Positions 1-23,125 of a stretch of 64,000 bases of DNA are shown here, piece by piece. The stretch comes from an uncultured Methanosarcinales archaeon (GTDB lineage: Archaea; Nanobdellota; Nanobdellia; Woesearchaeales; JAGVZT01): positions 28,189 to 92,188 of the forward strand of contig CAYUHF010000003.1 of NCBI GenBank assembly GCA_964444505.1. Reading direction: 5' to 3'. Every line of letters begins with the position of its first letter. Position 1 is the first letter of the stretch. The position numbers and the translations under genes were made by a program. Below the pieces are notes generated by a model. The model was not told where the DNA came from, made no database searches, and worked only from the letters and a program-made list of their open reading frames with translations.

Positions 1-1383
1 AGGGCAGTTTGTCTCCGACTCAGATGAGCACGGATCCTCTTCAGTGCAGGTTCCCTGTATTTTGAAAGGGTCTGACTGAGCTGCATCAGTGTCAGAACAG
101 CTGTCTGTACACTCTTCATAAACTGAACCCTGCACATTGTCTCCTGAGTCTACGCAAACACCACCACCGCAGGTGTAATCATCAAAAAAAGAGTAGATGT
201 TTCCTGTTGAGATTCCGCATCCGTAATCGTCAAAATGAATGCCGTCCTCGTCATTACAGTCATAAGTTTCCAATACGCAGGTATCTTCAGTAGTTCCGGC
301 ATCTGTATTTGAGCACACATAATACGGGTCAATCTGATCTCCCGAACATGAGTCAGTCCCTGAAGTCTGGGAGGACTGCAACAAGTTTATGTTGCACTCC
401 CAGTTGTAAGCTGTACATGAGGTACCTGCCTTTGTACACAAGTCTCCTCTTTCAGTAAGCATTTGTGTACATGTGTCATCTCCATCAGCATTCCCGTCAT
501 TTTCCTCGCAAACGTAATAATCAACAGTCAGGTCATCATCTCCAGTGCAGACATCGCTTCCTCCTGTTGTTGTTGAATCACACTGGCCCTGGTCACAGAA
601 GTTGTCTGTTGCTGAGCAGGATCCTCCTCCATAATTTGTCCCGGTATCAGAGCAAGTGTCTGCAGGACAATCAGAATCTTCTGTACAACAGAGATTTCCT
701 CCTGGCCCTGGTTCCCCAAGACAGTCCTCGTCTGCACAATCAACATCACCATCACAGTCATTATCAACCCCGTCACCACATGTAACTTCGTTTGGAAGTT
801 CTGCGCCACAGAGTGCAGAACATACAGGATCGGGCTCAGTAATAGAACAGTCAGGAGTGCAGTCGGTGCACTCACAGCTACCCATGTCACAAGTGTTGCT
901 GCATGTATCAGAAACAGTCTCTGAACCCATATCTCCCTGTACACCATAATCCACAAGATAAGCACCATCACAATAATCAACATAAGTCTCGCTGCAGCTT
1001 TCTGTCCCGCAGTCATCATCTGCATCACACTGTGCCTCACACCTTCCAGCATCTGAAGTTGAAGGAGCACCATCATAATAAGGGTCAGTATTATCTGAAC
1101 AAACACTCTGGTAAACGCATGTTGCATCACAGATTCCTTCTGCAGTACATGTTCCCTGTACTAAAGGAGCCCAGTCCCAGGTATTCATGTCTCCATCAAT
1201 ATCACATCTGTCAGGACAGTCATAGGTACAGGTCTCACCAGTACAATCAGAATCAGCACAGTCAATGTCACCATCTCCGTCGTCATCAACAAAGTTTGCA
1301 CAATTTTCCTGGACTTGAGCAAACACAAAACCAGCCGCAAATACAAATACTATTAATAAGAAAACTAACTTACTCCACCTCAT
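1..1383 (-). CDS. Secreted cysteine-rich surface protein, partial (the C-terminus lies beyond the window edge)
   Basis: Own reverse translation from an ATG at 1383 gives MRWSKLVFLLIVFVFAAGFVFAQVQENCANFVDDDGDGDIDCADSDC..., i.e. a signal peptide followed by D-rich Ca-binding-like and Cys-rich sequence. A GAGGTGG SD lies 5 nt upstream. The ORF is open to position 1. It is absent from the ORF track only because there is no stop codon in the window. Confidence 0.7.
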   Translation of the reverse strand, partial: MRWSKLVFLLIVFVFAAGFVFAQVQENCANFVDDDGDGDIDCADSDCTGETCTYDCPDRCDIDGDMNTWDWAPLVQGTCTAEGICDATCVYQSVCSDNTDPYYDGAPSTSDAGRCEAQCDADDDCGTESCSETYVDYCDGAYLVDYGVQGDMGSETVSDTCSNTCDMGSCECTDCTPDCSITEPDPVCSALCGAELPNEVTCGDGVDNDCDGDVDCADEDCLGEPGPGGNLCCTEDSDCPADTCSDTGTNYGGGSCSATDNFCDQGQCDSTTTGGSDVCTGDDDLTVDYYVCEENDGNADGDDTCTQMLTERGDLCTKAGTSCTAYNWECNINLLQSSQTSGTDSCSGDQIDPYYVCSNTDAGTTEDTCVLETYDCNDEDGIHFDDYGCGISTGNIYSFFDDYTCGGGVCVDSGDNVQGSVYEECTDSCSDTDAAQSDPFKIQGTCTEEDPCSSESETNCP

Positions 1384-1523: not shown

Positions 1524-2597
1524 TCAGCTGTACACTTCCTGGCCATTTGAGGCATATGGTTCTGTTGGCAGGCTTGATGTTTCTGCTCCTGAAAAGTCAT
1601 CAAATCTTGTACAGGTGCATGAGTTTCCCATCCTGCTTGAGACAACACACGGCTTGCTGTTCCAGACAACAACACAGTTTCCATATGGGTCTGTCAGCCT
1701 GCATGAAGGACAAAAGCTTATTGATGTTGTGTATTGTTTATGGTAGCCTTCTAGCTCTCCATCCTGGTCCACGTCCATTGCAAGCCATGAAGAGTACAAT
1801 GGGTAGTTTTCCGATTCCCCGTTTGTCCTGAATACAACTGTTTTTTCCTGGCATTCACCATTACTGCACTTGTAGCTGCATGTCTCAACTAATATTGGTT
1901 GTGTAGTCTGTGTGCACTCTGCATTGAGTGTTCGGGGATTTATGCAGGTGTGGATTGTTTTCTGCCTGTAGATTGAGTTTTGGTCACAGTATGCTTCGCC
2001 CACCCATTCATCTGTCCCGCACTGTGTGTTGTTTGTGCATGCATATTCCTCGCAGGATCCGTCTGTGCAGTAGCCCTCACAGCAGTCAACTGTTTTTTTT
2101 ACTGATTGTTTTTCGCAGTATGATTCTGCTGTTCCCGGATTTCTGCATGTGTAGTTTGAAAAGTCCTGGAATACCTGTTTTTGAACAGCACAGTATGTCT
2201 CATTATTGCATTCACACATGGGTGCTTGTGAACAATAGGAGTCATCTACTTTGTAGAGACCTTCATTAACACAGATTGTGCAGCATTCAGAACTGCATGT
2301 GAAAAACTGCAGTGTCTGTCCTTGTCTTAAGCAGATATATTGATAGTCTCTTTCAGATGCGCAGTAGGGTTGTTGTGGTTCAATACAGTCTGAATCTGTA
2401 CTGCATTCAGGTTGTTTCCATATTTCTATTGCTTCAAGAAGAATTGGCATTGAGACAATATTGTTTTTCCAGTCATCAACACACTCAATAACCTCCTGCA
2501 TAGTAATGGAGTTATCTGAATTGTAATCACACTCATTAGATAGTGCAGAGGGAAGAATAACTAGAAACATTGCAATAAAAAAAACTCTCTTTTTCAA
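1524..2597 (-). CDS. Secreted cysteine-rich protein (357 aa) with the conserved ~105-aa C-terminal NGQEVY domain
   Basis: Signal peptide MKKRVFFIAMFLVILPSALS. A probable TTG start is preceded by a GGGGGT SD. The protein has ~40 Cys and shares its C-terminal block VFRTNGESENYPLYSSWLAMDVDQDGELEGY...PTEPYASNGQEVYS with the genes at 2830 and 5965. It carries a WK motif (DDWKNNIVSMPILLEAIEIWK) just after the signal peptide. Confidence 0.75.
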   Translation of the reverse strand: MKKRVFFIAMFLVILPSALSNECDYNSDNSITMQEVIECVDDWKNNIVSMPILLEAIEIWKQPECSTDSDCIEPQQPYCASERDYQYICLRQGQTLQFFTCSSECCTICVNEGLYKVDDSYCSQAPMCECNNETYCAVQKQVFQDFSNYTCRNPGTAESYCEKQSVKKTVDCCEGYCTDGSCEEYACTNNTQCGTDEWVGEAYCDQNSIYRQKTIHTCINPRTLNAECTQTTQPILVETCSYKCSNGECQEKTVVFRTNGESENYPLYSSWLAMDVDQDGELEGYHKQYTTSISFCPSCRLTDPYGNCVVVWNSKPCVVSSRMGNSCTCTRFDDFSGAETSSLPTEPYASNGQEVYS

Positions 2598-2717
2598 TAT
2601 ATGACCCCCAAATTAGAACTGATTTACTATGTTATATATTTTTTGGGTTTAGAATATTTATATTTGGGTCTTTTGTGCAGTTTACAATAAATGAGATATG
2701 ATTTTTACCTCCTCCAT

Positions 2718-2777
2718 GGCACAGACGGCCATTTGCGCATAGCCTATTCCATTGCTTCGCAACTCCATCTGGCCAGG
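2718..2777 (+). repeat. 60-nt dispersed repeat (copy A), a relic of an HTH-MNT gene 5' end
   Basis: The sequence ggcacagacggccatttgcgcatagcctattccattgcttcgcaactccatctggccagg is about 90% identical to the reverse complement of 13341-13401. It lies in a spacer between two minus-strand genes. The spurious ORF 2691..3140 runs through it. Confidence 0.6.
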
Positions 2778-2829
2778 AGGCAAAAATCTCTGAATAATGA
2801 TAATTTTGTAGTAATATCAAAAAAAAAAT

Positions 2830-4482
2830 TTAGCCATAGACTTCCTGGCCGTTGGATGCGTATGGTTCTGTTGGACTTGTACTTGTTTCTGCTCCCCCAT
2901 ATGAATCAAACCTCTGGCAAGTGCATCCATATCCAAATCTGCTTGTCACCACACAAGGATCTCTATTCCAGACAACCACACAATTCCCGTAAGGGTCTGT
3001 TAATTTGCATGAAGGGCAGAAGCTTATTGAAGTGCTGTACTTCTTCTCATAACCCTCCAAATCTCCATCATCATCAACATCCATGGCAAGCCAAGAGCTT
3101 GAGTATAGTGGGTAATTCTTGCTCTGACCGTTTGTCCTGAAGATTACTTCATCCGGAGGATGTCCTACACACGCTCCATCAACACATTCAAAGTCACATG
3201 TTTCAACTTCTTCCACAGTTTCAGTATATTGACATGAGGCTTCAACTGTGTCTGGTTTATCACAATAATAGTCTCTATAATTATTGTTAACAGCATTTCC
3301 CACACAATACCTGCCTGTATAGGTGTCCTTAGGGCAGTCTGAATCTGAAGTACAATCCACAGGGAGGCATAGGCCATCGCTACATTTGGTATCTGTTGGA
3401 CAGTCATATTCTATTATGTCATAATAACCATCACCCTGAATCTCACAATTCCATCTTGTACTGGGATTAGTACAACCTTTATCCCCAGCATTACACTCGT
3501 CTTCAATAACACACTCCCCATTAACACATTCCTTCCCTGGGGGACAGGGTACAACTGTACTCCATTCAAGACATGTGTCATCGTCATAATCACCACAAGT
3601 GATATATCCATCACCAGAACATTCTCTCTCACCTACAGGAAAACACCCGTCTATGCAAGGCGGTGTATCTTCTTCACATTCAGATTGTATTGAATCACAA
3701 ATGTCATCATGTTGCCAAAAGAAAAGCCATTGTTTTAGTGCATTTATCTCTGTAACTAGACCAGTAACTGAAGATTCCATATCTGATCTCCAACCTTCCA
3801 ATGATGATATGCTATCCTCAATGTCATTTACTATCTCCTGGATATCTGATTTCCACGTTTGAAGAGAGGCTAGCTGGTTCCCCTGGGCTGTGTTCTCCGT
3901 TTCAACATCGGTAATCCTTCTAGATATGTCAGTGATATCAGTTTCTGAATATTGTCCCTTTCCTTCGATATATGATGCTGGACCATCCAAGTCGTATATT
4001 GCATGACCAGATACATAGTCAAGATATAACTTGATATTTAGTATCATATCTAAGTATTTATCATCAACACAATTCGTACAATGCATATAGGAACTACCAG
4101 TCAAATATACTTTTTTATCTGAAGAAAATGCGATGTTGTCGACGTGAAGTGTACCTGTAAAATAACCTTCGTATACGAACCCACTTTGTTCTGGAGTAAA
4201 ACTAACTGCTCCTGCAAAGGCATCTTCTTTTTCATTAAAATAGGATGTAGATAAACAGACCTCTGCATTTTGCATACTTGCAGTCTCTGAATCGTAATAT
4301 TCTGTTGAAAAACAAGTACTCATATAGTCTCCCGTAAAAAAAACATCTTGCTCCGTCGAAATATCGCTCCAGTCATACATTTCTATACTCTCATCACTCA
4401 TAGGAGAGGCCATAATTGTAGATGGAAAGAAACAGAACACACTAAGAAACATAATTACCAAAGAAAAAACTCTTTTGTTCAT
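2830..4482 (-). CDS. Secreted protein (550 aa) with an N-terminal non-Cys domain, a W-rich helical segment, Cys-rich repeats and the conserved C-terminal NGQEVYG domain
   Basis: The start was trimmed to the ATG at 4482 (MNKRVFSLVIMFLSVFCFFPSTIMA signal peptide, GGGGGTG SD 7 nt upstream). The C-terminal 105 aa are near-identical to the 5965 gene. The last ~50 nt are nearly identical at DNA level to 5965-6015. Confidence 0.8.
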   Translation of the reverse strand: MNKRVFSLVIMFLSVFCFFPSTIMASPMSDESIEMYDWSDISTEQDVFFTGDYMSTCFSTEYYDSETASMQNAEVCLSTSYFNEKEDAFAGAVSFTPEQSGFVYEGYFTGTLHVDNIAFSSDKKVYLTGSSYMHCTNCVDDKYLDMILNIKLYLDYVSGHAIYDLDGPASYIEGKGQYSETDITDISRRITDVETENTAQGNQLASLQTWKSDIQEIVNDIEDSISSLEGWRSDMESSVTGLVTEINALKQWLFFWQHDDICDSIQSECEEDTPPCIDGCFPVGERECSGDGYITCGDYDDDTCLEWSTVVPCPPGKECVNGECVIEDECNAGDKGCTNPSTRWNCEIQGDGYYDIIEYDCPTDTKCSDGLCLPVDCTSDSDCPKDTYTGRYCVGNAVNNNYRDYYCDKPDTVEASCQYTETVEEVETCDFECVDGACVGHPPDEVIFRTNGQSKNYPLYSSSWLAMDVDDDGDLEGYEKKYSTSISFCPSCKLTDPYGNCVVVWNRDPCVVTSRFGYGCTCQRFDSYGGAETSTSPTEPYASNGQEVYG

Positions 4483-4604
4483 AATCAACACCCCCAAAAT
4501 CTTTAATGATAAAAAAATATATATCTTTTTCCCTGTCACAATCTGATTAGGGACAACACAGATATTCAAGAAATTTTAAATACTCTTGTTTGTGGATTCA
4601 AGAT

Positions 4605-5795
4605 ATGACACACTATCTGATTGAGTTCAGATTCCAAGGAAAAGCTAAACATGAAATCAGAGAATTAGTCTATGATATAAGGAATAGATTCAATCTTCGT
4701 GGTAAGAGAGCAGTTCCCCATATAACCTTGGCAGGACCTTTAAGTACTAATGATGAAAAAAGATTAATTGGTGAATTAAATAGGCTATGCGGCAAATCTC
4801 CCCTTATGAGTTTCCAGGTTGAAGGTTTCAGTGTTTTCAAGGAAACTGGTGTTGTATTCCTTGATATTAAGCCAAGTGAAGAATTAAAGGAGTTTCGCTG
4901 GAAACTATCAAGAAAATTACAGTCATATTGTGAGTTGAGCAAATACGATTACGATAAAAATTTTGATTTCCATGCTACAATTGCTATGAAACTGCCAGAT
5001 AGAAAGCTTGAACAAATATCCAAATATCTAGAAGAAAAACACAAAGTTGGTTTTCGTCATATCCTGATCAGGGCAACAATAATTAAAAACAAGAAGATAT
5101 TGAGAGAATACGATTTTTTCCTTAGAAGGCCTCTTACGAGAAAGCTCGCATTAAACAGAAGAGTAAAGGCAAAAACCTTTTCTCTATTGGAAGCATATTT
5201 CATTGGCAGATTTAACCCAGATGAGTTTTTTGGTAGATTTAGCTTTAGGATAAAGAAGAAAAAAGCAATAGATAAGTTAATTGATATGTTCAGAAAACCC
5301 AAGATATTTATTACATCAGATCTGCATATGGATCACAAGAACATTATGAAATACTGTGTTAGACCTTTCTTAGCCGTGGAGGATATGAATCGTACTCTTG
5401 TAAACAACTGGAACAACACAGTAAGCAAAAAAGACACAGTGTACTTTCTGGGGGACTTAGCGTTCGGCAGAGGTAGCCGATCAACAGACTATTGGATGAA
5501 AAAGTTGAATGGTAAGATTGTTTTCCTTAAAGGCAACCATGATAAATCATCTAAGATAAAGTTTCATGACAATTACACTCTTGAATATCGTGGGTACAAA
5601 TTCTTTCTTACTCATGAACCCGAAAGCATTCCTGAAGAGTGGGATGGATGGGCTATCTGTGGGCATCATCACAATAACAAAATGGATGAATATCCTTTTT
5701 TTGATAGGGAAAATAGAAGATTCAATGTTTCAACAGAGTTGACTAAATTCTGTCCCATTGAGATGGATGATCTAATAAGACAGATTCAAGAGTGA
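4605..5795 (+). CDS. Two-domain phosphoesterase: N-terminal 2H (LigT-like, two HxTx motifs) fused to a C-terminal calcineurin-like metallophosphoesterase
   Basis: The 2H motifs are PHITLAG and FHATIAM. The MPP motifs are DLHMDH, GDLAFGRG, GNHD, THEPE and GHHH. The ATG at 4605 is preferred over the TTG at 4590. It is the only plus-strand gene inside the minus-strand island. Confidence 0.7.
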   Translation: MTHYLIEFRFQGKAKHEIRELVYDIRNRFNLRGKRAVPHITLAGPLSTNDEKRLIGELNRLCGKSPLMSFQVEGFSVFKETGVVFLDIKPSEELKEFRWKLSRKLQSYCELSKYDYDKNFDFHATIAMKLPDRKLEQISKYLEEKHKVGFRHILIRATIIKNKKILREYDFFLRRPLTRKLALNRRVKAKTFSLLEAYFIGRFNPDEFFGRFSFRIKKKKAIDKLIDMFRKPKIFITSDLHMDHKNIMKYCVRPFLAVEDMNRTLVNNWNNTVSKKDTVYFLGDLAFGRGSRSTDYWMKKLNGKIVFLKGNHDKSSKIKFHDNYTLEYRGYKFFLTHEPESIPEEWDGWAICGHHHNNKMDEYPFFDRENRRFNVSTELTKFCPIEMDDLIRQIQE

Positions 5796-5964
5796 TTTAG
5801 TTAATTAGAAAATAGACTTTTTTTATAAATCAAGTCCTTACAAGGCACTAAATTTACTGATAATAAAAGAAATCTCTGATTGCGTATTCTCATCAACAAA
5901 TTTGAATAAGAAAAGAAAAATATCTCAGCATACCAATCAGCCGACTCTTCAAATGATGAAAAGT

Positions 5965-7464
5965 CTAGCCATAGACTTCCTGGCCGTTGGAAGCGTATGG
6001 TTCTGTTGGACTGCTGGATGTTTCTGCTCCCCAATAATCTGTGAATCTTGAGCATGAGCATGAATATCCCATCCTGCTTGTTACAACACATGGGTCTCCG
6101 TTCCACACAATCACACAGTTTCCGTACGGGTCTGTCAGCCTGCATGATGGACAGAAGCTTATTGAAGTGCTGTATTTTTTCTGGTAGCCTTCCAATTCTC
6201 CGTTTCCATCTACGTCCATTGCCAGCCATGTTCCTGAATACAATGGATAATTTGCTGACTGGCCGTTTGTCCTGAAGATGACTGACTGTGATGTGTCGCA
6301 TTGTCCGTCAACACAATCTCCAGCGCATGTCTCTACCAGGACAGGATCTACACTGTCTGAACATGATGAATCCAGTGTTCCTGGATTTGAACATGTGTAT
6401 GTTCTCTGGTCTCTGTAGACGGCATTCCCGTCACAGTAATTTTCTGTGACCCATTCATCTGTTCCGCAGTCTGAGTCCTGTGTGCAGGTGAATGACTGGC
6501 ACTCACCGTCAACACATGCATCATTGCAGGTCATTATTGTTTCATCTGTGTCTGTGTATTCACATGCAGCAGATGGTGTTCCTGCGTTCTCGCAGGAATA
6601 ATCCCTGTAAGTGTCATGCACTTCAGCCCCGTCACAGTATCTTCCAAGATACCTGTCTGAAGGACAGTCTGAGTCTGAGTTGCAGCTCACTGCAACACAT
6701 TCTCCATCAAGGCATGCTTCTGCACAGTCTTCGACTAGTTCGTCTGTGTCTGTGTACTCGCATGATGACTGGAGTGTTCCTGGATTTGAACAATAATAAT
6801 CTCTTTGTGTATTGTAGACATCATTGTTCTGGCAGAACTCGCCAAGATAGGTGTCTGACAAACAATCTGAATCTGATTCACAGGCAACTCCTGAGCATGA
6901 GCCTGCTGCATCACACAAGTTTGAGTGTGATGAGAAACCAAGCCAGTCTTTTATTGCCTGGATTGTGTTATCAACAGTGGTCTTCCACTGCATCAGTAAA
7001 GATAAGTCCTGTTCTGCTGTTGTTTTCCAGTCTTCGAGTGCTGCAAGTCTTTCTTCAACATCTCCTGTCGGCTGGCAGTCAGCAACTGTTACATCTGTCA
7101 ATCCTCCAACATCTGTCTCACTCCCTCCTGAAAAACCATAGGTTCCTGAAAAAGAGGATGTGCCTGTTGACATTGGTGCCTGGACTGTATAAGTATGAGT
7201 TGTGTCCTCTGCTCCTGAGAGGATTGTCCAGAATATGTGTGGTGGATTTGTGGTTGAATCTCCGCCCCCGCTGTTCGTGACAGTAAATCCTGCCGGAACA
7301 ACTTCATCTATTAAATATGAAGATTCTGTATTGACATCCACATTCAAAGTCACGTCAAACTCTTCTCCCATGCAGGGTGTCTGCGTGGAAAAAGTTCTTG
7401 ACACTGTTCCTGCAAAAACTGCAGGTATCATCATCAAAAACATCAGATAATAAATTTTTTTCAT
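5965..7464 (-). CDS. Secreted protein (499 aa) with an Ig/CARDB-like N-terminal domain, a WK helical motif, 4 DSDC...NPGT Cys repeats and the C-terminal NGQEVYG domain
   Basis: The start was trimmed to the ATG at 7464 (MKKIYYLMFLMMIPAVFA, GGGGGAT SD). The unit DSDC(x)YLG.YC.GN.VY..RDY.C.NPGT is repeated four times. The C-terminal block ends EPYASNGQEVYG. Confidence 0.8.
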   Translation of the reverse strand: MKKIYYLMFLMMIPAVFAGTVSRTFSTQTPCMGEEFDVTLNVDVNTESSYLIDEVVPAGFTVTNSGGGDSTTNPPHIFWTILSGAEDTTHTYTVQAPMSTGTSSFSGTYGFSGGSETDVGGLTDVTVADCQPTGDVEERLAALEDWKTTAEQDLSLLMQWKTTVDNTIQAIKDWLGFSSHSNLCDAAGSCSGVACESDSDCLSDTYLGEFCQNNDVYNTQRDYYCSNPGTLQSSCEYTDTDELVEDCAEACLDGECVAVSCNSDSDCPSDRYLGRYCDGAEVHDTYRDYSCENAGTPSAACEYTDTDETIMTCNDACVDGECQSFTCTQDSDCGTDEWVTENYCDGNAVYRDQRTYTCSNPGTLDSSCSDSVDPVLVETCAGDCVDGQCDTSQSVIFRTNGQSANYPLYSGTWLAMDVDGNGELEGYQKKYSTSISFCPSCRLTDPYGNCVIVWNGDPCVVTSRMGYSCSCSRFTDYWGAETSSSPTEPYASNGQEVYG

Positions 7465-8051
7465 ACTGATCCCCCTTTCCATAATGTTATTGCGTCAAGC
7501 AAATTATTCATGTCTGCCTGGCCTGACTTCCAGACATTGATATAATCAAGAACTTCATCCATCTCAACTGAACTGCTGCAGTCTGTGTCTGAAAAGTGTG
7601 CTTTTGTCTCGTCTACCTGGCCGTTGCAGTTGTTGTCTTTGCCGTCGCAAAGCTCTGGTGCGCCTGGATAGACTTCTGGGTCGTAATTGTCGCAGTCTGT
7701 TTCTGTGTAGCCGTCTGCATCATAATCTGTTTCGCATGCATCTCCTACACCGTTGTTGTTTGAGTCCTGCTGGTCACGGTTCCATGTGTTCGGGCAGTTG
7801 TCCTGGTAATCAGGAAAACCGTCCAGGTCTTCATCATGTTCTGTGCAGCTGCAGCCATAAGCATCATTGCAGTACTGTGGAAGAGTCCACATTCCATTGT
7901 CCTTGACACACATGTAGCAGCACTCGCTCTCACAGACATAATAGCCTGAAAGAATCTGGCCCTGATCCATGCATACCCAGTAGTTAGCTGATACACTTGC
8001 AGCTAACACCAAGAAAGCAATTAATCCTATCAACATTCTTTTTGTTTTCAT
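7461..8051 (-). CDS. Secreted Ca-binding-like protein with thrombospondin type-3-like repeats and a CxGxDNxCxG motif
   Basis: The start was trimmed to 8051 (MKTKRMLIGLIAFLVLAASVSA). DGFPDYQDNCPNTWNRDQQDSNNNGVGDACETDYDADG fits the TSP3 DxDxDG...DNCP...N.DQ.D consensus. ELCDGKDNNCNGQVDE resembles the MopE-type putative metal-binding motif. A C-terminal WK motif (LDYINVWKSGQADMNNLLDAITLWKGG) is present. There is a 4-nt overlap with the upstream gene. Confidence 0.7.
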   Translation of the reverse strand: MKTKRMLIGLIAFLVLAASVSANYWVCMDQGQILSGYYVCESECCYMCVKDNGMWTLPQYCNDAYGCSCTEHDEDLDGFPDYQDNCPNTWNRDQQDSNNNGVGDACETDYDADGYTETDCDNYDPEVYPGAPELCDGKDNNCNGQVDETKAHFSDTDCSSSVEMDEVLDYINVWKSGQADMNNLLDAITLWKGGSV

Positions 8052-8201
8052 TTTGAAGCATGATGTCACAGGCCCCCCGTATTGGTTTGGGGTGGAGAAC
8101 GATAATCATGTTAGTTCTCACATGGAGAGCCTGTGACTTTAATAATCGTGATGTTATTTAAGTGTTTTTAAAAAAGAAAAAAAAAATTAAAAAAGTTGTC
8201 C

Positions 8202-9386
8202 TTAAACAGCCTCTCCCCAGAAGAAAATACTTCCTTGTGAAAAGTCGCCGTTACATGGCTCTGGCAAGTCAAGCTTGAATGTCAAAGACATCTCTGCGCC
8301 TGGTGCTAACAAGTTAGCCCCGTAGCCCATATCTGCATCTCCTGCAAATGGTCCATCAATTGGATTAGCCTGCAGGATTTCAGCTTCATTGTACATTGCT
8401 CTTGCAAAGTGATCGCCGTACTGGATGTTGACATAATTCTCTTGATCCAAAGTTCTTGTTGTTGCTGGATCGTAAGTGTTGTCATCATCTGTTGCATCAT
8501 CAGCACTTGAATAAGCGCCGTTTGTTGCAAAGTAAGCAAAGTTGTGCAAGTCAAGCTTGTTTGTTGTAGGACACTTAGCACCTGAGTGTGCTGGGTCATA
8601 AAAGTCTGTTCCTGATATAAACATATCAAGTAGTACTCCTGAACCATCCTCTGCGCCGTTACCTACTGTCAGAGTGTTTGAGTAAACCTGTGTTCCAGGT
8701 CTTACGCCATTCTCTCCGCCAAATGTAAGCTGAGATCCGTCAAGTGTCAATGAGATTGCTGGATTGAAGAACCAGTATTCGTTCTCGTCCATTGATCCCA
8801 TTAAACCATCAAGGTCAACAACATTTGCTGTTACCCAGTACTCACCATGGAAGATGTCGTCTCCTCCTTCTACCATCTGTGGACCTTCAACAGTTAGAGT
8901 ACATCTGTAGTAGTCCATTGTGTTTGCGTCAAAGTCTACTAACTGCTCTTCGTCAATTCTTGCATTACAAGAATCACAAATTTGTCCATTTGAATCATCA
9001 CATGGAGCACTTGTCTTGTCACAGTTCACTTCAATCTCGTTTCCGCTTCCCTGTACTTTGCCAACTGATACATAAACATCCTCGATCTTCTCGATTCCGT
9101 TCTTGTCCATGACAAGTACTGTCCAGGCAATCTGTTCTCCTTCAAAAGCGTAGTTGTTATTTCTCTCAAGAAGCTCTGCGCCTACCTCAGCGTCACCTAC
9201 TGCGCCTGCGGTAATTCTTCCCCACTCAACATTGTCATCTGACACAAATCTACTGTCACACATCCAAATTCGTGGTTCAAAGTCCTCTGTTGGTATGTCA
9301 ATGCCTACACTGCCGCCAATGCTATTTGCAAAAACAGCTGGTAGCAACATTGCCACAGCCATCAAAACTGCTATTAGTTTTTTCAT
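8202..9386 (-). CDS. Secreted acidic protein (394 aa), possibly a cell-surface or S-layer-like component
   Basis: The start was trimmed to the ATG at 9386 (MKKLIAVLMAVAMLLPAVFA). A strong GGAGGT SD lies 7 nt upstream. The protein is D/E/G/N-rich with few Cys. There is no recognisable catalytic motif. Confidence 0.6.
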   Translation of the reverse strand: MKKLIAVLMAVAMLLPAVFANSIGGSVGIDIPTEDFEPRIWMCDSRFVSDDNVEWGRITAGAVGDAEVGAELLERNNNYAFEGEQIAWTVLVMDKNGIEKIEDVYVSVGKVQGSGNEIEVNCDKTSAPCDDSNGQICDSCNARIDEEQLVDFDANTMDYYRCTLTVEGPQMVEGGDDIFHGEYWVTANVVDLDGLMGSMDENEYWFFNPAISLTLDGSQLTFGGENGVRPGTQVYSNTLTVGNGAEDGSGVLLDMFISGTDFYDPAHSGAKCPTTNKLDLHNFAYFATNGAYSSADDATDDDNTYDPATTRTLDQENYVNIQYGDHFARAMYNEAEILQANPIDGPFAGDADMGYGANLLAPGAEMSLTFKLDLPEPCNGDFSQGSIFFWGEAV

Positions 9387-9912
9387 GTTTTTTAACCTCC
9401 TTCCTATTCTATTCAAATCATTATCCAGCTTGCGCCGGATATTGTGGCCGATCATAAACCAACCACACCCCTATTAGATAGGGCCCTCTCCAACAAATCG
9501 GGTGAAATGTTGGGTCATGAAACTCATGACAATAATTTTGAGACTAGCTAAACGTAGAATCTTGTTTGGCTCCCCTCAAACCTTTGTACACCCCCTACCA
9601 ACACTAACATTTTTTTATCATCATAGAATGATGATTGTTTGTGATATCTATCGTAGAGTAGTATTCCATATAAATATATTGTTGTAAGACAATTTATATT
9701 CTAAAACACCGAAAAAATCGTTTATCACAAGTTGGATACGAACTGTTCTAAGACTAAAAAACAAGCTTTTAAGCACTTTTTGGTATTTTCAACACAAAAG
9801 TGTGACAACTCAGTTGATTTATAAAACTATTTGAAAATGACAACAAAAATCTATTACCACTAGAAAAAATAACAGAGTGTTTTATCCATGTAGATACGAG
9901 AGGGGGGAAATA

Positions 9913-10403
9913 TCAGCTGGTGAGCTTTGTGAACTGTTTTCTTAGTGATTTGACCACTTCATTTGTAAGGTTAGCTTTAATCAATTTTATATTAACAACA
10001 AACCCTTCTGCCATCTCCATTAGTTCTTCTGCTTTTTTTCTGACCTCACCTTCAGAAACATAGTACTGTTTTTCGATTCTTTCTTCCTTCACCAGTGTGC
10101 TAGCCAGTTCCTTGTCAACCCCCTAAGAATCAGAATCGAACCCAGATGATTTTCTGATTTAATACCTACCTTGTACAGAAGAGAGATTAAAATATTGTAC
10201 ATTGTATAATATGACATAGCCACAGAGTTCTCATAAAGAGAATTTTCATACAACAATCTGGCAGATTTCATGCAATTTGCCGATTTCTCAGCATAAGAAT
10301 TTGAAATATTCTCTGAAGGATCAATAAGACTTAACTTTTCCTCCTGTCTTAATCTCGCCAAAAATCTTGTCATAGTACTCTTCAAAACCCTTAACAATGA
10401 CAT
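9913..10403 (-). pseudogene. HEPN-domain toxin paralogue 1, disrupted by a frameshift in a C5/G5 homopolymer
   Basis: ORF 10089..10403 ends ...ILILRGLTRNWLAHW*. A second frame continues GVDKELASTLVKEERIEKQYYVSEGEVRKKAEELMEMAEGFVVNIKLIKANLTNEVVKSLRKQFTKLTS*, which aligns with the C-terminal half of HEPN paralogue 2 (GLSKEDL...). A +1 shift at the ccccc run (10110-10114) restores a ~160-aa protein. Confidence 0.55.
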
Positions 10404-10974
10404 GGTTTTTTATGATCTCCTGAATAAGAGCCGAATTCTTATCGAATCTTCCGGATTTTACATTAATCCCAGAAAGTGTTTTTTCGATTTTTTCTTCAAC
10501 ATAAAGGTCGATATCACTATTCTTTCGTGCAGTACCTTTTGCATAAGAGCCGAAAAGAATTACCATGCTGTCTGTCTTGATATCAGCAAATATCACCCTT
10601 AGATGTGGATACTTGGTGAGTGTTTTTTCCAATACGTAGAGCTCTGAAGTCAGCATGTAGACCTTTGAAAACATATTTTTCTTTACAAAATAGACTTTGT
10701 TTCTGCCCTTTTTTTCAAAATCAACCACCTGCTTACAATAAAGAGAATTCAGTCTTCTGGATACAGTGGAATGTGGCTCATCTAAAATCCTTGCCAACTC
10801 CCTGACATGCATCTCCTTCTTAACCAAGTAATGCACAATCTCCAGCTCAATATTGTTTCTATTTTGAACCATATGTACCAATAATGAACCAATAGTATTT
10901 AATGTTTTTGCTTTATAGCCAAACTGCCCTTCTTTGCCGTAGCTGTAAGAAAAGTGATCAATTAGAATTATCAA
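10321..10974 (-). CDS. wHTH + minimal nucleotidyltransferase (MNT) antitoxin-type protein, copy 1
   Basis: The NTase motif is LFGSYAKGTARKNSDIDLYV (GS...DxD). An N-terminal winged HTH (HVRELARILDEPHSTVSRRLNSL) is present. There is an apparent TTG start. The gene overlaps both flanking HEPN genes. Confidence 0.7.
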   Translation of the reverse strand: MIILIDHFSYSYGKEGQFGYKAKTLNTIGSLLVHMVQNRNNIELEIVHYLVKKEMHVRELARILDEPHSTVSRRLNSLYCKQVVDFEKKGRNKVYFVKKNMFSKVYMLTSELYVLEKTLTKYPHLRVIFADIKTDSMVILFGSYAKGTARKNSDIDLYVEEKIEKTLSGINVKSGRFDKNSALIQEIIKNHVIVKGFEEYYDKIFGEIKTGGKVKSY

Positions 10975-11521
10975 CCATATCCCTTAGCTTATTCACAAAC
11001 AAAACAGCTTTTATCCTAAGATTCTCAACTTCCATACTATCAAAAAGCGTCTTAGTTGAATATGTGGCATTCTCTCTTTTATTCTTTGACTCAACATAAA
11101 ACAGAACATCCTCATAGTCCAAAAAACCTGAGACAATTATCAGATCTTCTTTGGACAGACCCTTCTTATAGAACTTTTCTATCAGAACCAATAGTGTAGC
11201 TTCATGGTTTTTGGAGGAATAACCTTTTGTCTGTATCAATGCCAGTGCTGCATGATAGCAGGCATAATAGCATCCAGTAATTGCCCAATCATAGAATTTA
11301 TTTTCAGAAGCCAGTTTGATAAACCTAAGGTTGTTCTCTGCTTTTGAAATATGCCCTTCTATTTCTGCATGGTCAATCTCCTGTTTATTCAGCAGCCCCT
11401 CATTTCTATACTTTTTGATCCTCCCACTCACAATTTCAGGGTTGTCCAATAGTCTAAGAAGCTCATATTCTCTCATCAAGGACCTCATAATATGAGATGT
11501 GATTGACGATCGGATAACCAC
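10958..11521 (-). CDS. HEPN-domain protein (toxin partner of MNT), copy 2
   Basis: The size and all-helical sequence fit, and it overlaps the MNT genes on both sides. It is paralogous to 9913..10403. A KNH variant replaces the canonical Rx4-6H motif (YSSKNHEATLLVL). The true start is probably at an internal Met (MRSLMREYELL). Confidence 0.55.
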   Translation of the reverse strand: MVIRSSITSHIMRSLMREYELLRLLDNPEIVSGRIKKYRNEGLLNKQEIDHAEIEGHISKAENNLRFIKLASENKFYDWAITGCYYACYHAALALIQTKGYSSKNHEATLLVLIEKFYKKGLSKEDLIIVSGFLDYEDVLFYVESKNKRENATYSTKTLFDSMEVENLRIKAVLFVNKLRDMVDNSN

Positions 11522-12131
11522 TGTTTATTGCAGACTGTATTACCTTATCCTCTTTAAGTTTAAGTTCAATAACAAAATCATTGTATTCAATCTGGAAAGT
11601 ATTAATCTTAACTGCAGCAAGAGCATCTGCTTCATTTTCTGCATCTTTTGTTGAAATCTTTTTGTTTGTGACAAGCAGTATATCCATATCAGACTCTTTC
11701 TTTTGCGTGCCTTTGGCAGTTGAACCAAAAAGAACCGCAAAGACAGGTACTTGGTCAAGCTTTTCCATGTATGCCTTTATCGCTTTTTTTCTTATTCTGG
11801 GCAGTTTCTGATACCTTTCAACATCAAAAGAAGTAAACACAAGATACGCTTGTCTTGTCTTCTTAACTCTAAAGAGTTTTAGATTCCCTTTCCTGTCTGA
11901 CTTTAGTATTTGGTCCTCTTCCAGTCTTTCAAGAAATCTGGTTACGCTTGGTAGATGCATATCTGCCCTTCTTGCAATTTCTCTTAGATGCAATTCCCTG
12001 CCCATATCATCATAGAATAACTGCATTATTTCCATATAGCCGTTTTTTAATATTGTTACCATTATTATATCAATCGTTATAATATCTTTATCATATATAA
12101 ACCTTTCTAACTGTTTCATATGATTAATCAA
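11463..12131 (-). CDS. wHTH + minimal nucleotidyltransferase (MNT), copy 2
   Basis: LFGSTAKGTQKKESDMDILLV matches the NTase motif. An N-terminal HTH (LHLREIARRADMHLPSVTRFLERL) is present. The protein is paralogous to 10321..10974. Confidence 0.7.
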   Translation of the reverse strand: MINHMKQLERFIYDKDIITIDIIMVTILKNGYMEIMQLFYDDMGRELHLREIARRADMHLPSVTRFLERLEEDQILKSDRKGNLKLFRVKKTRQAYLVFTSFDVERYQKLPRIRKKAIKAYMEKLDQVPVFAVLFGSTAKGTQKKESDMDILLVTNKKISTKDAENEADALAAVKINTFQIEYNDFVIELKLKEDKVIQSAINSGYPIVNHISYYEVLDERI

Positions 12132-12214: not shown

Positions 12215-12850
12215 CTATATTTTGGCCTTTATGTTTCCAATAAGCTTCTGGGAGAACATATTCCAGAATAATGCCTCTCTAATATATGGTGCCTCTGGTA
12301 TTGCATCACTTGCAGAATATTTGTTAATAAGGCTCCTATACACTCTCTGAGACTTATCATAAGCCTGTTTTACTGTTTTTCCCTTTAGAATTGATCTTGG
12401 AATAATATTACTTGGTGTCATAAAAATTGAGCCAATTTCATCTTTCTCAGGTGTACATTCTTTGTTTTTATCAGTCAGGAAAACAAAAGGTGCTTTGTAA
12501 CCAATGAATGCCTTGCATTTCTTATTAACAGCAGATACACCTAAACTCTTTGCTGAGTTGCATGAGAGAGAATAGCATATCTTACCAGAGAGCAGTTTGT
12601 CATTCACATTTTCCTCAATCAGCTTCATATTATCATATCCGCATATGACAGAGTTACTCCCGTGCCCATTAAACCAGACAAAATCAATGTTCCTCTTTTT
12701 CAGAAAGCTTTCAACAGTAGTCCTATCCGACCTTTCTCCATCTAAAAGATAAATTGACGGTTCAAATTCACAAATAACCTCTGAAGCCCAGCATGCAAGG
12801 TATTGAGTAGTCAGGTCTGAATTAGGCAAGGTTACTAAGGTTTTGTTCAT
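12215..12850 (-). CDS. Stand-alone caspase-like (clan CD, C14-like) cysteine peptidase domain protein, 211 aa, cytoplasmic
   Basis: FVWFNGHGSNSVICGYDN...LSGKICYSLSCNSA matches the caspase His-Gly...Gly-Lys-(hydrophobic)5-x-C-x-G/S-A dyad pattern. Compare caspase-3 SHGEEGIIFGTNG...GKPKLFIIQACRG. There is no signal peptide. A 4-nt ATGA overlap joins it to the upstream small gene. Confidence 0.55.
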   Translation of the reverse strand: MNKTLVTLPNSDLTTQYLACWASEVICEFEPSIYLLDGERSDRTTVESFLKKRNIDFVWFNGHGSNSVICGYDNMKLIEENVNDKLLSGKICYSLSCNSAKSLGVSAVNKKCKAFIGYKAPFVFLTDKNKECTPEKDEIGSIFMTPSNIIPRSILKGKTVKQAYDKSQRVYRSLINKYSASDAIPEAPYIREALFWNMFSQKLIGNIKAKI

Positions 12851-13050
12851 TCTATCCCTTTCTTAAAAGATCTCAAATAGTTCAGCTGCATCTCAATCAC
12901 AAGCTTTCCAAACTCATCCTTTCTCTTGACAGCAGCTATAAGCTCATCTCTGTCAAAACTGCCGTAATTGCCAAGATGAGTCTTGATATTATTAGGCATT
13001 GACTCTAGTCTTTTTACAACAAGCTGTACAATATCTTCTGAATAATCCAT
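12847..13050 (-). CDS. Small hypothetical protein (67 aa), middle gene of the 3-gene cassette
   Basis: Its ATG directly abuts the TAA of the upstream ORF (TAAATG), suggesting translational coupling. No motif was recognised. Confidence 0.45.
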   Translation of the reverse strand: MDYSEDIVQLVVKRLESMPNNIKTHLGNYGSFDRDELIAAVKRKDEFGKLVIEMQLNYLRSFKKGIE

Positions 13051-13386
13051 TTAGATCAAATCCATCCCCTTGAGTTTTTCAAGTATTCTCCTCCCAAGTT
13101 CAGTCCCATTATCAACTTCTATGTAAGCTGCATTCCATGAATACGGCTTGTCATCAACAACTACTATTATCTCATTTCTTACATCTTCAGGAAGATTTGA
13201 ATAAACCCTCAAAAACCTGTCTTTTGACATCTGAAGCATATTACATTTCTCATCTATATAAAGATTATTAAAACATAACATAAAATATCCAAAAAACTTT
13301 CGAGAAAAAGTGTGGTTCCACCAATTAAAATCACATACAGCCTCGGCCAGATGAAGTTGCGAAGCAATGGAATAAGCCATGAGCAA
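13051..13386 (-). CDS. Small hypothetical protein (111 aa, or 62 aa from the internal ATG at 13239)
   Basis: The first ~17 codons (MLMAYSIASQLHLAEAV) come from the 60-nt MNT-derived repeat and are probably not native. A likelier start is MLQMSKDRFLRVYSNLPEDVRNEIIVVVDDKPYSWNAAYIEV. It is in the same frame as the 67-aa ORF, separated by a single TAA. Confidence 0.4.
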   Translation of the reverse strand: MLMAYSIASQLHLAEAVCDFNWWNHTFSRKFFGYFMLCFNNLYIDEKCNMLQMSKDRFLRVYSNLPEDVRNEIIVVVDDKPYSWNAAYIEVDNGTELGRRILEKLKGMDLI

Positions 13387-13419: not shown

Positions 13420-16400
13420 TTAAACAACAATGATTGGCCTGTGCCTTACCCTTCTCAAGCCTTCATTGTATAATTCAAGCTTGACCATGTAAAACCCTGG
13501 CCTTGCATCATCAGGTATTTCCAGCAACAAGTCTCTTGTCAACTCACCGTCAGCATTCACACTCATTGGACCGAGTCTTCTGCTCTTGATTCCAAGTCCC
13601 TGGACAAATGCCTCTATTTCTAGATTCTTCATCTCACAATAACCCATGTTCCTGAAGTTTACTGTTATCTGGAGCTCTTCTCCCGGCTCTACAACCTCAT
13701 CATACACAAACCCGATTCTGTCGATTCTTATCTTTGCCTTTGGCTCGTTTATGTAGTTGTAGTCGCACTCTGTTTTTTCATACTCGCACATGCAGTCGCT
13801 GCAGATATCTATTGTTGTCGGGTTGTCATCAAAGCAGTCTGCATCTGTTGCACACTCTGCTCCGCATCTTCCAGCTACACACTGTGTTTTTGTCTCAAAT
13901 TCACCAAAAACACACATACACTGTGAACTGCAGTCACCATAGCCCTGTGCTACTGACAGCTTGTTTCCAACACACTCTTCTTCTTTTGCAAAGCAGTTTT
14001 CATTCCCGGAAGTTCCAGGTAGTTCACATTCCTCTCCTGCATCAATGTTTCCATCACCGCAGTAAGGAACATACTCGTGCTCACACATACAACCGCTGCA
14101 TGTGTCTATTGTGTGCTCGTTCAGGTCATTGCAGTCATCATCTGAGTCACACTCAGCACCGCATGATCCCTGCACACATTCTGCTACTGGCCATACATCC
14201 TGCAGACAGCCGCAGTTTGGATCACAGTAACCAAATTCATCCCTGGTTGCTGTTTTCTTGCCTTCGCACTTTTCTGTGCTTTGTTCACAATATGAGTTGT
14301 CCTGTGTATCAGGCAGCTCACATTCTTCACTTGATGAATCAACCATCCCGTCACCACAATATCCATTGTGGGTGTATTCACATACACAGCTGTCTGTACA
14401 GACATCATCTGTTAATGGGTCTGAATCATCACAGTCTGAATCTGTCTCGCACTCTGCATTACATCTTGACATGTCACATGTATGAGTAAGTGTATCATCT
14501 TCTGTTGTACATTCACCTGGCTCTACACATTCTGATTCAAAACCTTCTCTTTTGTCCCATGTGTATGGGTTGCTATCAGGTATATTGTTACATGTCATTA
14601 TCTCTTCTATATCATATTCTGAGCAGTCTATTGGCTCTCCTGGTACACAGAATGCTGAATCATTATCTTCTTCACATGACTCCTGGCCATTGCAGCCAAG
14701 TCCGTCATCACAGTCCTGTTTTAGTGTATCTGAAAAAACACACTCTGCATTAGAACATGTCCCATCTCTTCCCCAGTGTTCTGTTCCTACACAGTAGCCG
14801 CTGTCAAGCTCATTGCAATCCTCTGTGGTTGTTTCTGTTTCACATTGGTTTTCTATACATACTCCTTGGTCATGTTTTACAAAGTCTCCATCACAGTAAT
14901 CATCATCTAAATAATCACAGTCTGAGTCTTCCATACATTCATATGGCTGGCACATCTCATCACAGCCATTTGTTCCTGGTGCAAACTCATCACATTCTGG
15001 TGCTGAAAGACATCCTGCATAGTCATCTTCACAGTGGTTGTCCTGCAGTTTGCAGTTTGCATCACAGTAGTCCTGCAGATATGGTGAACCATGCTCATCA
15101 CATGAAGCCAAAACTGTATTTGGCAGCTCACACTCCTCTCCAGCATCAGGATCAACTATTCCGTCACCACAGTAGCCATTATGGGTGTATTCACATGTAC
15201 AGCTGTCTGTACAAATATCATCTGTTAAAGGATTTGAATCATCACAATCAGAGTTTCTCTCGCACTCTGCATTACATCTTGAGATGTCACAGCTGTGCGT
15301 TATCATTTCGTCTCCAGTTGTACATTCTCCTGGTTCTACACATTCTGATTCAAAACCTTCTCTTTTGTCCCACGTGTATGGGTTGCTGTCAGGCATATTG
15401 TTACATGTCATTATCTCTTCTATATCATATTCTGAGCAGTCTATTGGCTCTCCTAAAACACACTCTGCCTGGTGATCAGCTCCTGGTGTTTCTTCACATG
15501 TCTCCTGGCCGTTGCAAGCAAGCCCGTCATCACAACTATAACTGTCTGAATCTATTATTACACACTTTGCAGAGTCACATGAATACAATTCTGTTACAAT
15601 GGAATTTCCTGAACAGTATTCTGTGTCAAGCTCACTGCAGTCCTCTGTTGTGGTCTCAACTTCACATTTATTTTCTATACATACTCCTTGGTCGTGCCTG
15701 ATCAAATCTCCAGCACAGTAATCATCATCCAGATAATCACAGTCTGAATCATCCATACACTCGTATGGCTGGCATGTCAAGTCACAGCCTTCTGTTCCAG
15801 GGATCACTTCATCACACTCTGGGTGAGCTGAACATCCTGGATAATCATCTTCACAGTGCTCATCCTGAAGCTGGCAGTTCGCATCACAATAGTCTCCAAG
15901 ATAGCTGCTTCCATAATCACATGATGCCAAAGCTGTATTTGGCCTCTCACATTCTTCGCCTGCATCAGGATCAACTATGCCGTCTCCACAGTAGCCTTGC
16001 TTAATATGCTCACATTCGCATTCTACACATATATCATCAGTAAGAGGATTTGAATCGTCACAATCAGAGTTTTTCTCGCATTCTGCATTACACCTTGATA
16101 TATCGCATGCGTGTGTAATTATTCCTCCCCATGTTGTACATTGGCCTGGCTCTATACATTCTGATTCAAAGCTTTCTCTATAGTCCCATGAAAATGGATT
16201 ATCATCTGGTATATTGTTGCAGGTTGAAATCTCTTCTTTATCATTATATGAACAGTCGATTGGTTCTCCTGGTACACAGAATGCTGTATCAAGGTCTTCT
16301 TCACATGACTCCTGGCCATTGCATGCAAGGCCATCATCACATTGTTCAACTAAACTTGTTGAAACTGAACACTGTGCATTACTGCATGTTCCATCATCTT

Positions 16401-17676: not shown

Positions 17677-17723
17677 TTTTATTGTCCACCTCAAATGTTA
17701 TAACCATTAAGTGACTACTATCA

Positions 17724-17753
17724 TTACTACGTAGTAACAACCAATATTTAAAT
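17724..17753 (-). promoter_or_regulatory. Putative promoter of giant gene 1: TATA-like box (17744-17753) plus a perfect 14-nt palindrome TTACTACGTAGTAA (17724-17737) just downstream of it
   Basis: In gene orientation the order is TTTAAATAT, 7 nt, TTACTACGTAGTAA, ~48 nt, ATG. That is the classical archaeal operator position, overlapping the TSS. A related motif occurs at 63338-63356. Confidence 0.4.
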
Positions 17754-17916
17754 CTTTTGGTAAAAGAAGAGAAATACAGATCAAATTAGCAAATTCTCTG
17801 TTGCCAGATAGAGTTTTGAGTTTAGAAACGAAATAGGGCGGGGAGCTACAGTCTGTACCCTGGAAGTGTGATTCCAACATAGTTGTTAAAGAAAATATTC
17901 CAAGAAGTAAAAAGAA

Positions 17917-23115: not shown

Positions 23116-23125
23116 ATTAAGACCT

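Follow-up and report, generated by a model that had tools for sequence, protein, structure and literature searches.

A rare C-terminal domain of secreted archaeal proteins: a candidate module for attachment to the cell envelope

We analyzed a 64,000-nt stretch of archaeal DNA, hereafter the window (positions 28,189-92,188, forward strand, of contig CAYUHF010000003.1, assembly GCA_964444505.1), and describe three of its genes, P1, P2 and P3, whose predicted secreted products end in the same domain. All positions given below are those of the window. Its archaeal nature is evident from genes for AglB/STT3, Elp3, a GHMP kinase and a geranylgeranyl-reductase-like protein, and the organism can be placed among the DPANN archaea because members of the protein family encoded at 8202-9455 come from DPANN metagenome-assembled genomes (MAGs). 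The three open reading frames (ORFs) were found in the ORF list, all on the minus strand, and were checked against gene calls made independently on another assembly of this organism (Logan SRR15425350), which corroborated the start codons of P2 and P3. P1 is identical to the 357-residue representative P0003 of the family described below, which corroborates its start codon too; P2 corresponds to P0001 and P3 to P0002. The genes and their parts are as follows (HMM, hidden Markov model; the shared domain is named FRTN...PTEPY after two of its motifs).

1524-2597, minus strand: P1, 357 residues; signal peptide, short motif like the C-terminus of ORF 7461-8069, Cys-rich region, two 8-Cys modules and C-terminal domain (ORF list, identity to P0003, tblastn).
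1527-1841, minus strand: FRTN...PTEPY C-terminal domain of P1 (residues 253-357), with the stop codon at 1524-1526 (tblastn and HMM coordinates).
1758-1775, minus strand: loop of P1 equivalent to DVDGNG of P3.
1842-2231, minus strand: two ~66-residue 8-Cys spacer modules of P1 (residues 123-252; HMM from the P3 modules, E 8.8e-12 and 8.8e-20).
2830-4482, minus strand: P2, 550 residues; signal peptide, variable N-terminal region, coiled coil ending in WLFFW, Cys-rich modules and C-terminal domain (ORF list, independent gene call, P0001).
2833-3150, minus strand: FRTN...PTEPY C-terminal domain of P2 (residues 445-550), with the stop codon at 2830-2832 (tblastn and HMM coordinates).
3064-3081, minus strand: loop of P2 equivalent to DVDGNG of P3.
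3157-3342, minus strand: 8-Cys spacer module of P2 (residues 381-442; HMM, E 5.6e-23).
3715-3930, minus strand, approximate boundaries: coiled-coil stalk of P2 ending in KQWLFFW (residues ~185-256; weak SMC/coiled-coil family matches at residues 175-258 and position of the motif).
5965-7464, minus strand: P3, 499 residues; signal peptide, DUF11-like immunoglobulin (Ig) domain, coiled coil, three 8-Cys modules and C-terminal domain (ORF list, gene call, P0002).
5968-6285, minus strand: FRTN...PTEPY C-terminal domain of P3 (residues 394-499), the sequence used for modeling, with the stop codon at 5965-5967 (tblastn, HMM, model).
6199-6216, minus strand: DVDGNG loop of P3 (residues 417-422) between strands 2 and 3, a putative Ca2+-binding hairpin (Dx[DN]x[DN]G motif, weak Pfam matches, secondary structure).
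6286-6870, minus strand: three tandem ~66-residue 8-Cys spacer modules of P3 (residues 199-393; HMM, E 4.5e-39, 1.4e-38 and 6.9e-34).
6943-7059, minus strand: coiled-coil stalk of P3 (residues 136-174), followed by KDWLGF (helix in the single-sequence model, position of the motif).
7090-7404, minus strand: variable N-terminal Ig-like (DUF11-like) head of P3 (residues 21-125; Pfam DUF11, E 9.3e-4, sub-threshold; same head in P0041).

The final 105-106 residues of P1-P3 aligned without meaningful gaps at 78-83% pairwise identity, with 75 of 106 columns invariant. Similarity among the three copies was far above chance (tblastn E = 1e-55 to 1e-59), and neither tblastn nor the broad family HMM detected a fourth copy in the window. 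Each protein ends one residue (Gly or Ser) past ...NGQEVY, with no transmembrane (TM) segment or further motif, and DNA similarity between the copies breaks off at the stop codon. Six Cys residues are present in this version of the block. The N-termini of all three proteins consist of a Lys/Arg-rich n-region and a hydrophobic h-region and thus resemble Sec signal peptides, as judged by composition rather than by a dedicated predictor. Immediate upstream regions contain the 8-Cys module, which occurs three times in P3, twice in P1 and once in P2 (tblastn, HMM), and both P2 and P3 have a coiled coil with W-L-[FG]-F at its end. An initial annotation of this DNA had described secreted proteins with variable N-terminal parts and an almost identical C-terminal block of ~105 residues. 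The block was borne out, and the signal-like N-termini are consistent with secretion. Variability was confirmed as well, in that the N-terminal parts of P1-P3 do differ from one another; as a refinement, similarity reaches upstream of the block into the repeated 8-Cys module. The block was also rightly set apart from PGF-CTERM and PEP-CTERM, as it has neither a TM helix nor a basic tail.

A truncated gene at 1-1383 (minus strand), which according to the initial annotation may also end in the block, codes for another secreted protein, whose C-terminus lies beyond the window. This protein contains many acidic double-disulfide repeats (NF033662, sub-threshold E of 3.1e-9). In order to extend the gene, P1 was sought on other contigs, and no other contig with P1 was found. 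A scan of the genome contigs with window-specific peptides gave 101 pattern matches, none of which was confirmed.

Relatives of the block were difficult to find. Used alone, it had no match in Pfam, NCBIfam or PDB sequences, and a word-indexed search of 5.8 billion clusters yielded none either; with a profile of 49 sequences, a word-indexed search recovered only seven short proteins. An exhaustive HMMER search of 1.84 billion representatives detected 68 proteins at E <= 1e-3. Multi-stretch partial matches, which were to bacterial repeat proteins, were then removed, and 47 proteins with the full domain remained, including P1-P3. From this family, 49 domain sequences were taken for alignment and motif counts. 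The family is small and rare, with ~47 representatives among 1.84 billion proteins. The excluded sequences (P0006, P0016, P0021 and similar bacterial giants with 'FQVNSYTT...DGDFVVVW' repeats) matched only part of the motif, at profile positions ~37-102, because of an FG-GAP-type hairpin segment. These giants contain dozens of 'FQVNSYTT..Q..PAVAMD.DGDFVVVW' repeats, and the hairpin-like motif, not the domain, is probably all that they have in common with the family.

Within the family, P1-P3 matched the HMM with independent E-values of 1e-35 to 2e-35 over positions 2-111, and other members matched a profile built from the window alone with E 2.5e-27 to 1e-3. The domain is ~105-120 residues long. 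It starts with V[IV]FRTN, continues with a hairpin (a W-I/L-A-x-D strand, then a Dx[DN]x[DN]G loop and L-E-G-[YF]) and, in most members, a central TPEGY...VC segment, and ends with AE[TL]S..PTEPY[AT]SN[GN]QEVY. R5 and E103 are invariant in the 49 domains, and F4, T6, W20, A22, D24, P93, P96, Y97 and Q102 are conserved in at least 90%; P1-P3 carry all of these residues and are members of the family by this measure as well. The number of Cys residues per domain varies from zero to six. The six-Cys version is a subfamily that the window proteins share with P0004, and its Cys residues could form up to three disulfides.

No reproducible Pfam family match was obtained for the 49 domains. The sole recurrent weak signal came from EF-hand and FG-GAP models; these matches were sub-threshold and limited to few members, and those that could be located fall on the Dx[DN]x[DN]G loop. 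A DUF5884 match in one of the 49 domains (E 4.6e-4) was not reproduced when all domains were rescanned, and Serglycin matches were an artefact of the Gly-Ser linkers used in the scan. The block is best described as a new domain family, the role of which is probably of a known kind.

The domain of P3 was modeled with AlphaFold2 from the alignment of 49 sequences (mean predicted local distance difference test score, pLDDT, 97.2; predicted template modeling score 0.87; all residues at or above 90). The model is all-beta, with seven main strands followed by a long ordered coil of AETSSSPTEPYASNGQ and a short final strand, EVY (residues 103-105). According to this model, the domain folds on its own. 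The conserved PTEPY...QEVY tail lies inside the confidently modeled region and is thus part of the predicted fold rather than a flexible tag or a disordered sorting peptide. No structural neighbor was detected among solved chains, and the domain is a candidate new fold as far as comparison with solved chains goes. This agrees with the initial annotation, in which the fold was not recognized: sequence searches of Pfam, NCBIfam and PDB and the structure search all failed to assign a known domain. By comparison, a single-sequence model of full-length P3 had a pLDDT of 39, with helix 136-174 as the only confident element. A strict Dx[DN]x[DN]G loop was present in 31 of the 49 domains, P1-P3 among them. 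This hairpin suggests that the putative binding depends on Ca2+, although not universally.

Conservation of the block is a property of the protein. Synonymous sites are saturated in pairwise comparisons of P1-P3 (proportion of synonymous differences, pS, 0.60-0.79), and the proportion of nonsynonymous differences (pN) is 0.11-0.16 in the block versus 0.35-0.49 in the 75 codons upstream. From the saturated pS and low pN it follows that the paralogs are old and that the block is conserved at the protein level; with a dN/dS of ~0.1 where computable, it is kept by strong purifying selection. The 3′ end of P2 and P3 differs from this pattern. In the last ~45 nt, 14 of 15 codons are identical, compared with 55% in the rest of the block (P = 0.0017), in line with the near-identity of the final ~50 nt (2830-2880 versus 5965-6015) that had been noticed initially. 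P1 does not share it (7 of 13 codons). The pattern resembles a short, local tract of conversion in genes that diverged long ago.

The position of the domain is similar in most of the family. Its last copy ends within six residues of the C-terminus in 33 of the 47 proteins and within 60 residues in 42; the block is thus not internal in most homologs, which, like assignment to a common domain, would have spoken against the reading in the initial annotation. Tails of 26-59 residues follow the domain in nine proteins and mostly consist of a Gly/Ser linker and a short V.VSI.LVPG-like peptide. In P0009, P0012, P0014, P0020, P0030, P0047 and P0054, the terminal peptide after the Gly/Ser linker (V.VSI.LVPG.. 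or VSGTI..G..) could be a separate sorting or strand-donating tag. Five proteins have the domain in an internal position or near the N-terminus, and six have more than one copy (two in P0008, P0011, P0019, P0032 and P0067, three in P0052). A signal-like N-terminus was present in 34 of the 46 members that start with Met. Only three of 52 family proteins (P0015, P0042 and P0056) have a C-terminal TM helix, and in all of them the domain is N-terminal and followed by a long further region; no protein with a C-terminal domain has a C-terminal TM anchor.

A variety of extracellular cargo is joined to the domain. The 1,790-residue P0052 contains Ig, fn3 and PA14 domains and Amidase_2, a peptidoglycan amidase, followed by its three domain copies. 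P0012 carries a DsbA-like thioredoxin/oxidoreductase, P0065 and P0039 are FG-GAP/TcdB/RHS giants, and the L009 protein has a HEVGH metalloprotease-like region; CBM96 and Ig-like heads were also found. P0041 has the DUF11-like head of P3 together with a divergent copy of the domain. Upstream of the domain, 15 family proteins have a coiled coil with the WLFFW motif, and 19 representative proteins have the 8-Cys module. Both are missing from many members, namely P0010, P0013, P0015, P0056, P0057 and, in addition, CARDB-like proteins of ~200 residues.

The taxonomic range was assessed by scanning species-representative genomes and metagenome contigs with a hand-made, back-translated PTEPYxxNxQEV DNA pattern. 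It was found in three species-representative genomes, two of them Candidatus Woesearchaeota MAGs and one a MAG labeled Methanosarcinales, and in 15 metagenome contigs. Where the sample type was recorded, family members came from one marine sediment metagenome and one groundwater metagenome.

Genes for P0052 and P0012 occur in ordinary archaeal chromosomal contexts (Sec61beta, geranylgeranyl-reductase-like gene). Other members are located on contigs of co-oriented ORFans, which are virus-like. Contigs L002, L003, L022 and L032 have several genes in common, L004 and L023 have one, and each contig of these two groups codes for one or two domain proteins, several of which lack a signal peptide. 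L002 contains a match to a terminase large subunit (PHROG 2666, E 1.5e-11), a call that had no support from PDB or GenBank phages. On L023, the domain gene directly follows that for a Beta_helix protein (E 5.7e-9) and a weak phage-depolymerase C-terminal match. Neither a motif scan of IMG/VR nor a tblastn search of INPHARED with the domain gave a match; no PHROG match was obtained for L032, nor a PDB match for its 601-residue protein. We regard a viral origin of these contigs as likely, and the two groups may be undescribed viruses of DPANN archaea.

We favor the interpretation that the FRTN...PTEPY domain is an autonomous, probably Ca2+-dependent module that tethers its cargo non-covalently to the archaeon's own envelope, and give it slightly less than an even chance. 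A Sec signal peptide would export the protein and then be cleaved. The C-terminal domain would bind a conserved component of the cell's own envelope, either protein or glycan, and the variable N-terminal head would be held at the cell surface on a stalk built from 8-Cys spacer modules and a coiled coil. The domain is also carried by putative viruses of these archaea, plausibly to bind the same surface. Such binding, its ligand and Ca2+ dependence, the disulfides and the use by viruses are what we infer from domain architecture. A tether to the own envelope is favored because proteins that end in the domain lack any other anchor and because a secreted DsbA would seem useful only if retained at the producing cell. 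The putative surface motif is near-invariant across divergent lineages whereas the heads are hypervariable, suggesting a conserved ligand, and occurrence of the domain on signal-less proteins of virus-like contigs fits a ligand on the archaeal surface, which viruses would gain from binding. Diversity of the extracellular cargo fits a tethering module. Tandem copies are typical of avidity-based binding modules. Strong purifying selection on the block, its predicted autonomous fold and the location of P1-P3 beside genes for other secreted proteins and a glycosyltransferase cluster (see below) also count in favor. As an alternative to a secretion or anchoring domain, the initial annotation had proposed a constant partner-binding module on a variable scaffold, and this proposal fits the evidence best.

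The closest functional analogy is provided by SLH, CWB2, SH3b and LysM modules of bacteria. These small autonomous modules at a protein terminus, often in two or three tandem copies, attach S-layer proteins, adhesins and enzymes such as amidases non-covalently to a polymer of the envelope; they are found in phages too. SLH is helical, however, whereas the FRTN...PTEPY model is all-beta and the domain has no Pfam SLH match. Type I/II dockerins of the cellulosome are also mostly C-terminal on diverse secreted enzymes, have DxDxDG-type Ca2+ loops and dock on a surface scaffold. Unlike our domain, with its single loop and all-beta model, a dockerin is a duplicated helical EF-hand-like module of ~70 residues; no Pfam dockerin match was obtained, and candidates for a cohesin-like partner would be the giant repeat proteins encoded at 13420-23280. 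The W-I-A-x-D-x-D-x-D-G-x-L-E strand-loop-strand with Dx[DN]x[DN]G resembles FG-GAP/integrin-type Ca2+ hairpins, in agreement with the weak FG-GAP and EF-hand matches, but there is one hairpin in a 105-residue domain and no beta-propeller repeat, and those matches were far below threshold.

Several observations weigh against a tether to the own envelope. No binding partner or ligand is known, and the fold offers no functional hint. The Dx[DN]x[DN]G loop is missing from 18 of the 49 domains. As the family is so rare, the domain is not a universal DPANN anchor. In P0015, P0042 and P0056 it lies opposite the membrane anchor, which suits a distal binding head at least equally well, and amidase and RHS toxin cargo fit delivery to a target cell just as well. 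Viral nature of the contigs rests on one PHROG match and one beta-helix match. Finally, the secreted protein encoded at 8202-9455 (P0073) was considered as the product of a recurrent partner gene and rejected, since its family lies beside domain genes only in the window and on contig L011.

A further extension is that the domain is a structurally orphan, Ca2+-dependent foot of a Woesearchaeota-type DPANN lineage, by which enzymes, toxins, adhesins and DsbA dock on one conserved envelope receptor, and that viruses captured it as a receptor-binding device. We regard this combination as speculative and, taken as a whole, rather doubtful. If true, finding the ligand would reveal, for a major group of uncultured archaea, both the key component of the envelope and the receptor used by viruses.

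The most serious alternative, unlikely but with a real claim on the data, is that the domain binds a foreign host, prey or neighbor cell; the proteins would then be secreted effectors or adhesins, and TM-anchored members would display the domain at their tip. The cargo includes a peptidoglycan amidase and RHS/TcdB-type toxins, and archaea, to our knowledge, have no murein. Lysins combine a catalytic domain with C-terminal cell-wall-binding domains, an arrangement that catalytic members with C-terminal repeats resemble. The domain would be membrane-distal in the three N-terminal-domain proteins with a C-terminal TM anchor. In addition, DPANN archaea are widely seen as host-dependent (PMC11606122). 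However, delivery as an effector would hardly make sense for the DsbA fusion P0012. Host-recognition surfaces usually diversify, whereas the putative binding motif is near-invariant across very different habitats and the block evolves at the low dN/dS given above. It is the heads that are hypervariable in the window, as expected of the parts that face outward and make contact. Virus-encoded copies would also need to bind the virus's own host, the archaeon.

Another alternative is a purely structural role, in which the domain would oligomerize or cap the coiled-coil stalk, or help the Cys-rich region to fold, with no external ligand. We consider this role improbable. It would explain why the domain so often follows the WLFFW coiled coil and the 8-Cys module, and it is compatible with the lack of a known ligand, but many members have neither stalk nor Cys modules, and a stalk cap would not be expected in tandem copies or at the N-terminus.

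A very improbable explanation is that the domain is a secretion or sorting signal that is recognized by dedicated machinery and removed or covalently processed, like the C-terminal domain (CTD) of the type IX secretion system (T9SS). This had been suggested in the initial annotation and was not supported. The T9SS CTD (Por_Secre_tail, TIGR04183/PF18962, Bacteroidota) is likewise an all-beta domain of ~70-100 residues at the extreme C-terminus of unrelated Sec-signal proteins, and the terminal position in most members, the diversity of cargo and the striking conservation of the last 14 residues would be expected of such a signal. Yet neither the block nor the 49 domains had a T9SS CTD match in Pfam or NCBIfam even at E <= 10, nor did any archaeosortase or other sorting-signal model match, and the model lacks an Ig-like beta-sandwich match to solved CTDs or to any other solved chain. 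The host is an archaeon, as indicated by AglB/STT3 and Elp3 and by relatives in Woesearchaeota MAGs and on a Sec61beta contig, and not a bacterium of the Bacteroidota/FCB with an outer membrane and PorU/PorV machinery. Single-membrane archaea need no second translocation step, and Sec-type signal peptides are already present. Duplicated or triplicated copies, the internal or N-terminal position in five proteins, the tails of 26-59 residues and the signal-less proteins of virus-like contigs all speak against a sorting signal, as does a conserved tail that belongs to the folded domain. Nothing points to cleavage or a dedicated secretion system, and no recurrent candidate processing enzyme was found in the neighborhoods examined. 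Archaeosortase signals differ in another way: PGF-CTERM and related signals of archaea are also C-terminal elements used for attachment of many archaeal surface proteins, but, as in PEF-CTERM and PEP-CTERM, they consist of a short motif, a TM helix and a basic tail, and they are removed by archaeosortase, whereas the block is a folded unit of 105 residues that ends in ...QEVYG without a hydrophobic segment and has no NCBIfam match. An autonomous binding module fits all of the observed architectures and is therefore preferred over a secretion signal.

That the block is shared merely through recent gene conversion or duplication and has no special function, as might be supposed from three genes within 6 kb and the common 3′ end of P2 and P3, can be dismissed in view of the saturated synonymous sites and low dN/dS, the absence of the 3′ tract from P1, the loss of DNA similarity at the stop codon and conservation of the domain in ~44 further representative proteins from unrelated samples.

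Little is understood of how the surface of DPANN archaea is assembled and how proteins are attached to it, and this surface is the site of any interaction with a host. The FRTN...PTEPY domain sets apart a group of secreted or surface proteins, among them a peptidoglycan amidase, RHS-type toxins and proteins with Ig-like heads. As a small, easily expressed and confidently modeled module, it could serve as a probe in pull-downs of its ligand, and its presence on virus-like contigs could help tie viruses of uncultivated archaea to their hosts. Domain databases could gain a new entry from it, and for structural biology it is a candidate new fold.

The genes for P1-P3 adjoin genes for other secreted Cys-rich proteins, a secreted protein conserved DPANN-wide and a large AglB/glycosyltransferase cluster. 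The conserved protein is P0073 (8202-9455, minus strand, ~394 residues). Its unannotated family is very large and unusually well conserved, with more than 1,166 matches, the top ones 54-62% identical, and no Pfam or PDB match; named members (54-59% identity) come from Woesearchaeota, Pacearchaeota, Nanoarchaeota and Aenigmarchaeota MAGs. P0073 is a candidate major DPANN envelope protein, and distant copies of it flank the domain gene in L011. Two giant secreted Cys-/Asp-rich proteins of 1,424 and 1,787 residues (13420-17694 and 17917-23280, both minus strand) have no Pfam match, and the former shows visible internal repeats. These giants are candidate scaffolds or partners of the domain proteins.

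ORF 7461-8069 (minus strand) contains a MopE motif as well as TSP3 repeats. The motif '...VLDYINVWKSG...LLDAITLWKGG' at its C-terminus (7476-7571) recurs in residues 30-61 of P1 (~2415-2510) with 41% identity (tblastn E 8e-4), and its central Cys region resembles residues 87-130 of P1. Between P2 and P3, a gene on the plus strand (4590-5795) codes for a fusion of a 2',5' RNA ligase (LigT-like) and a calcineurin-like metallophosphoesterase. Tandem nucleotidyltransferase and HEPN pairs (MNT/HEPN-type) are encoded at 10321-12131 (minus strand), as judged from Pfam annotation of Logan contig L001, which matches the window here. A three-gene cassette at 12215-13386 (minus strand; 111, 67 and 211 residues) is conserved on the virus-like contig L004 (7433-8515).

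A glycosylation/polysaccharide cluster extends over 26025-50546 and includes AglB/STT3, several glycosyltransferases of the GT2 and GT4 families, a flippase-like Polysacc_synt protein, an epimerase/dehydratase and three PMT_2 proteins. The cluster is in keeping with heavy glycosylation of the surface and may matter for the FRTN...PTEPY domain, should its ligand be a glycan.

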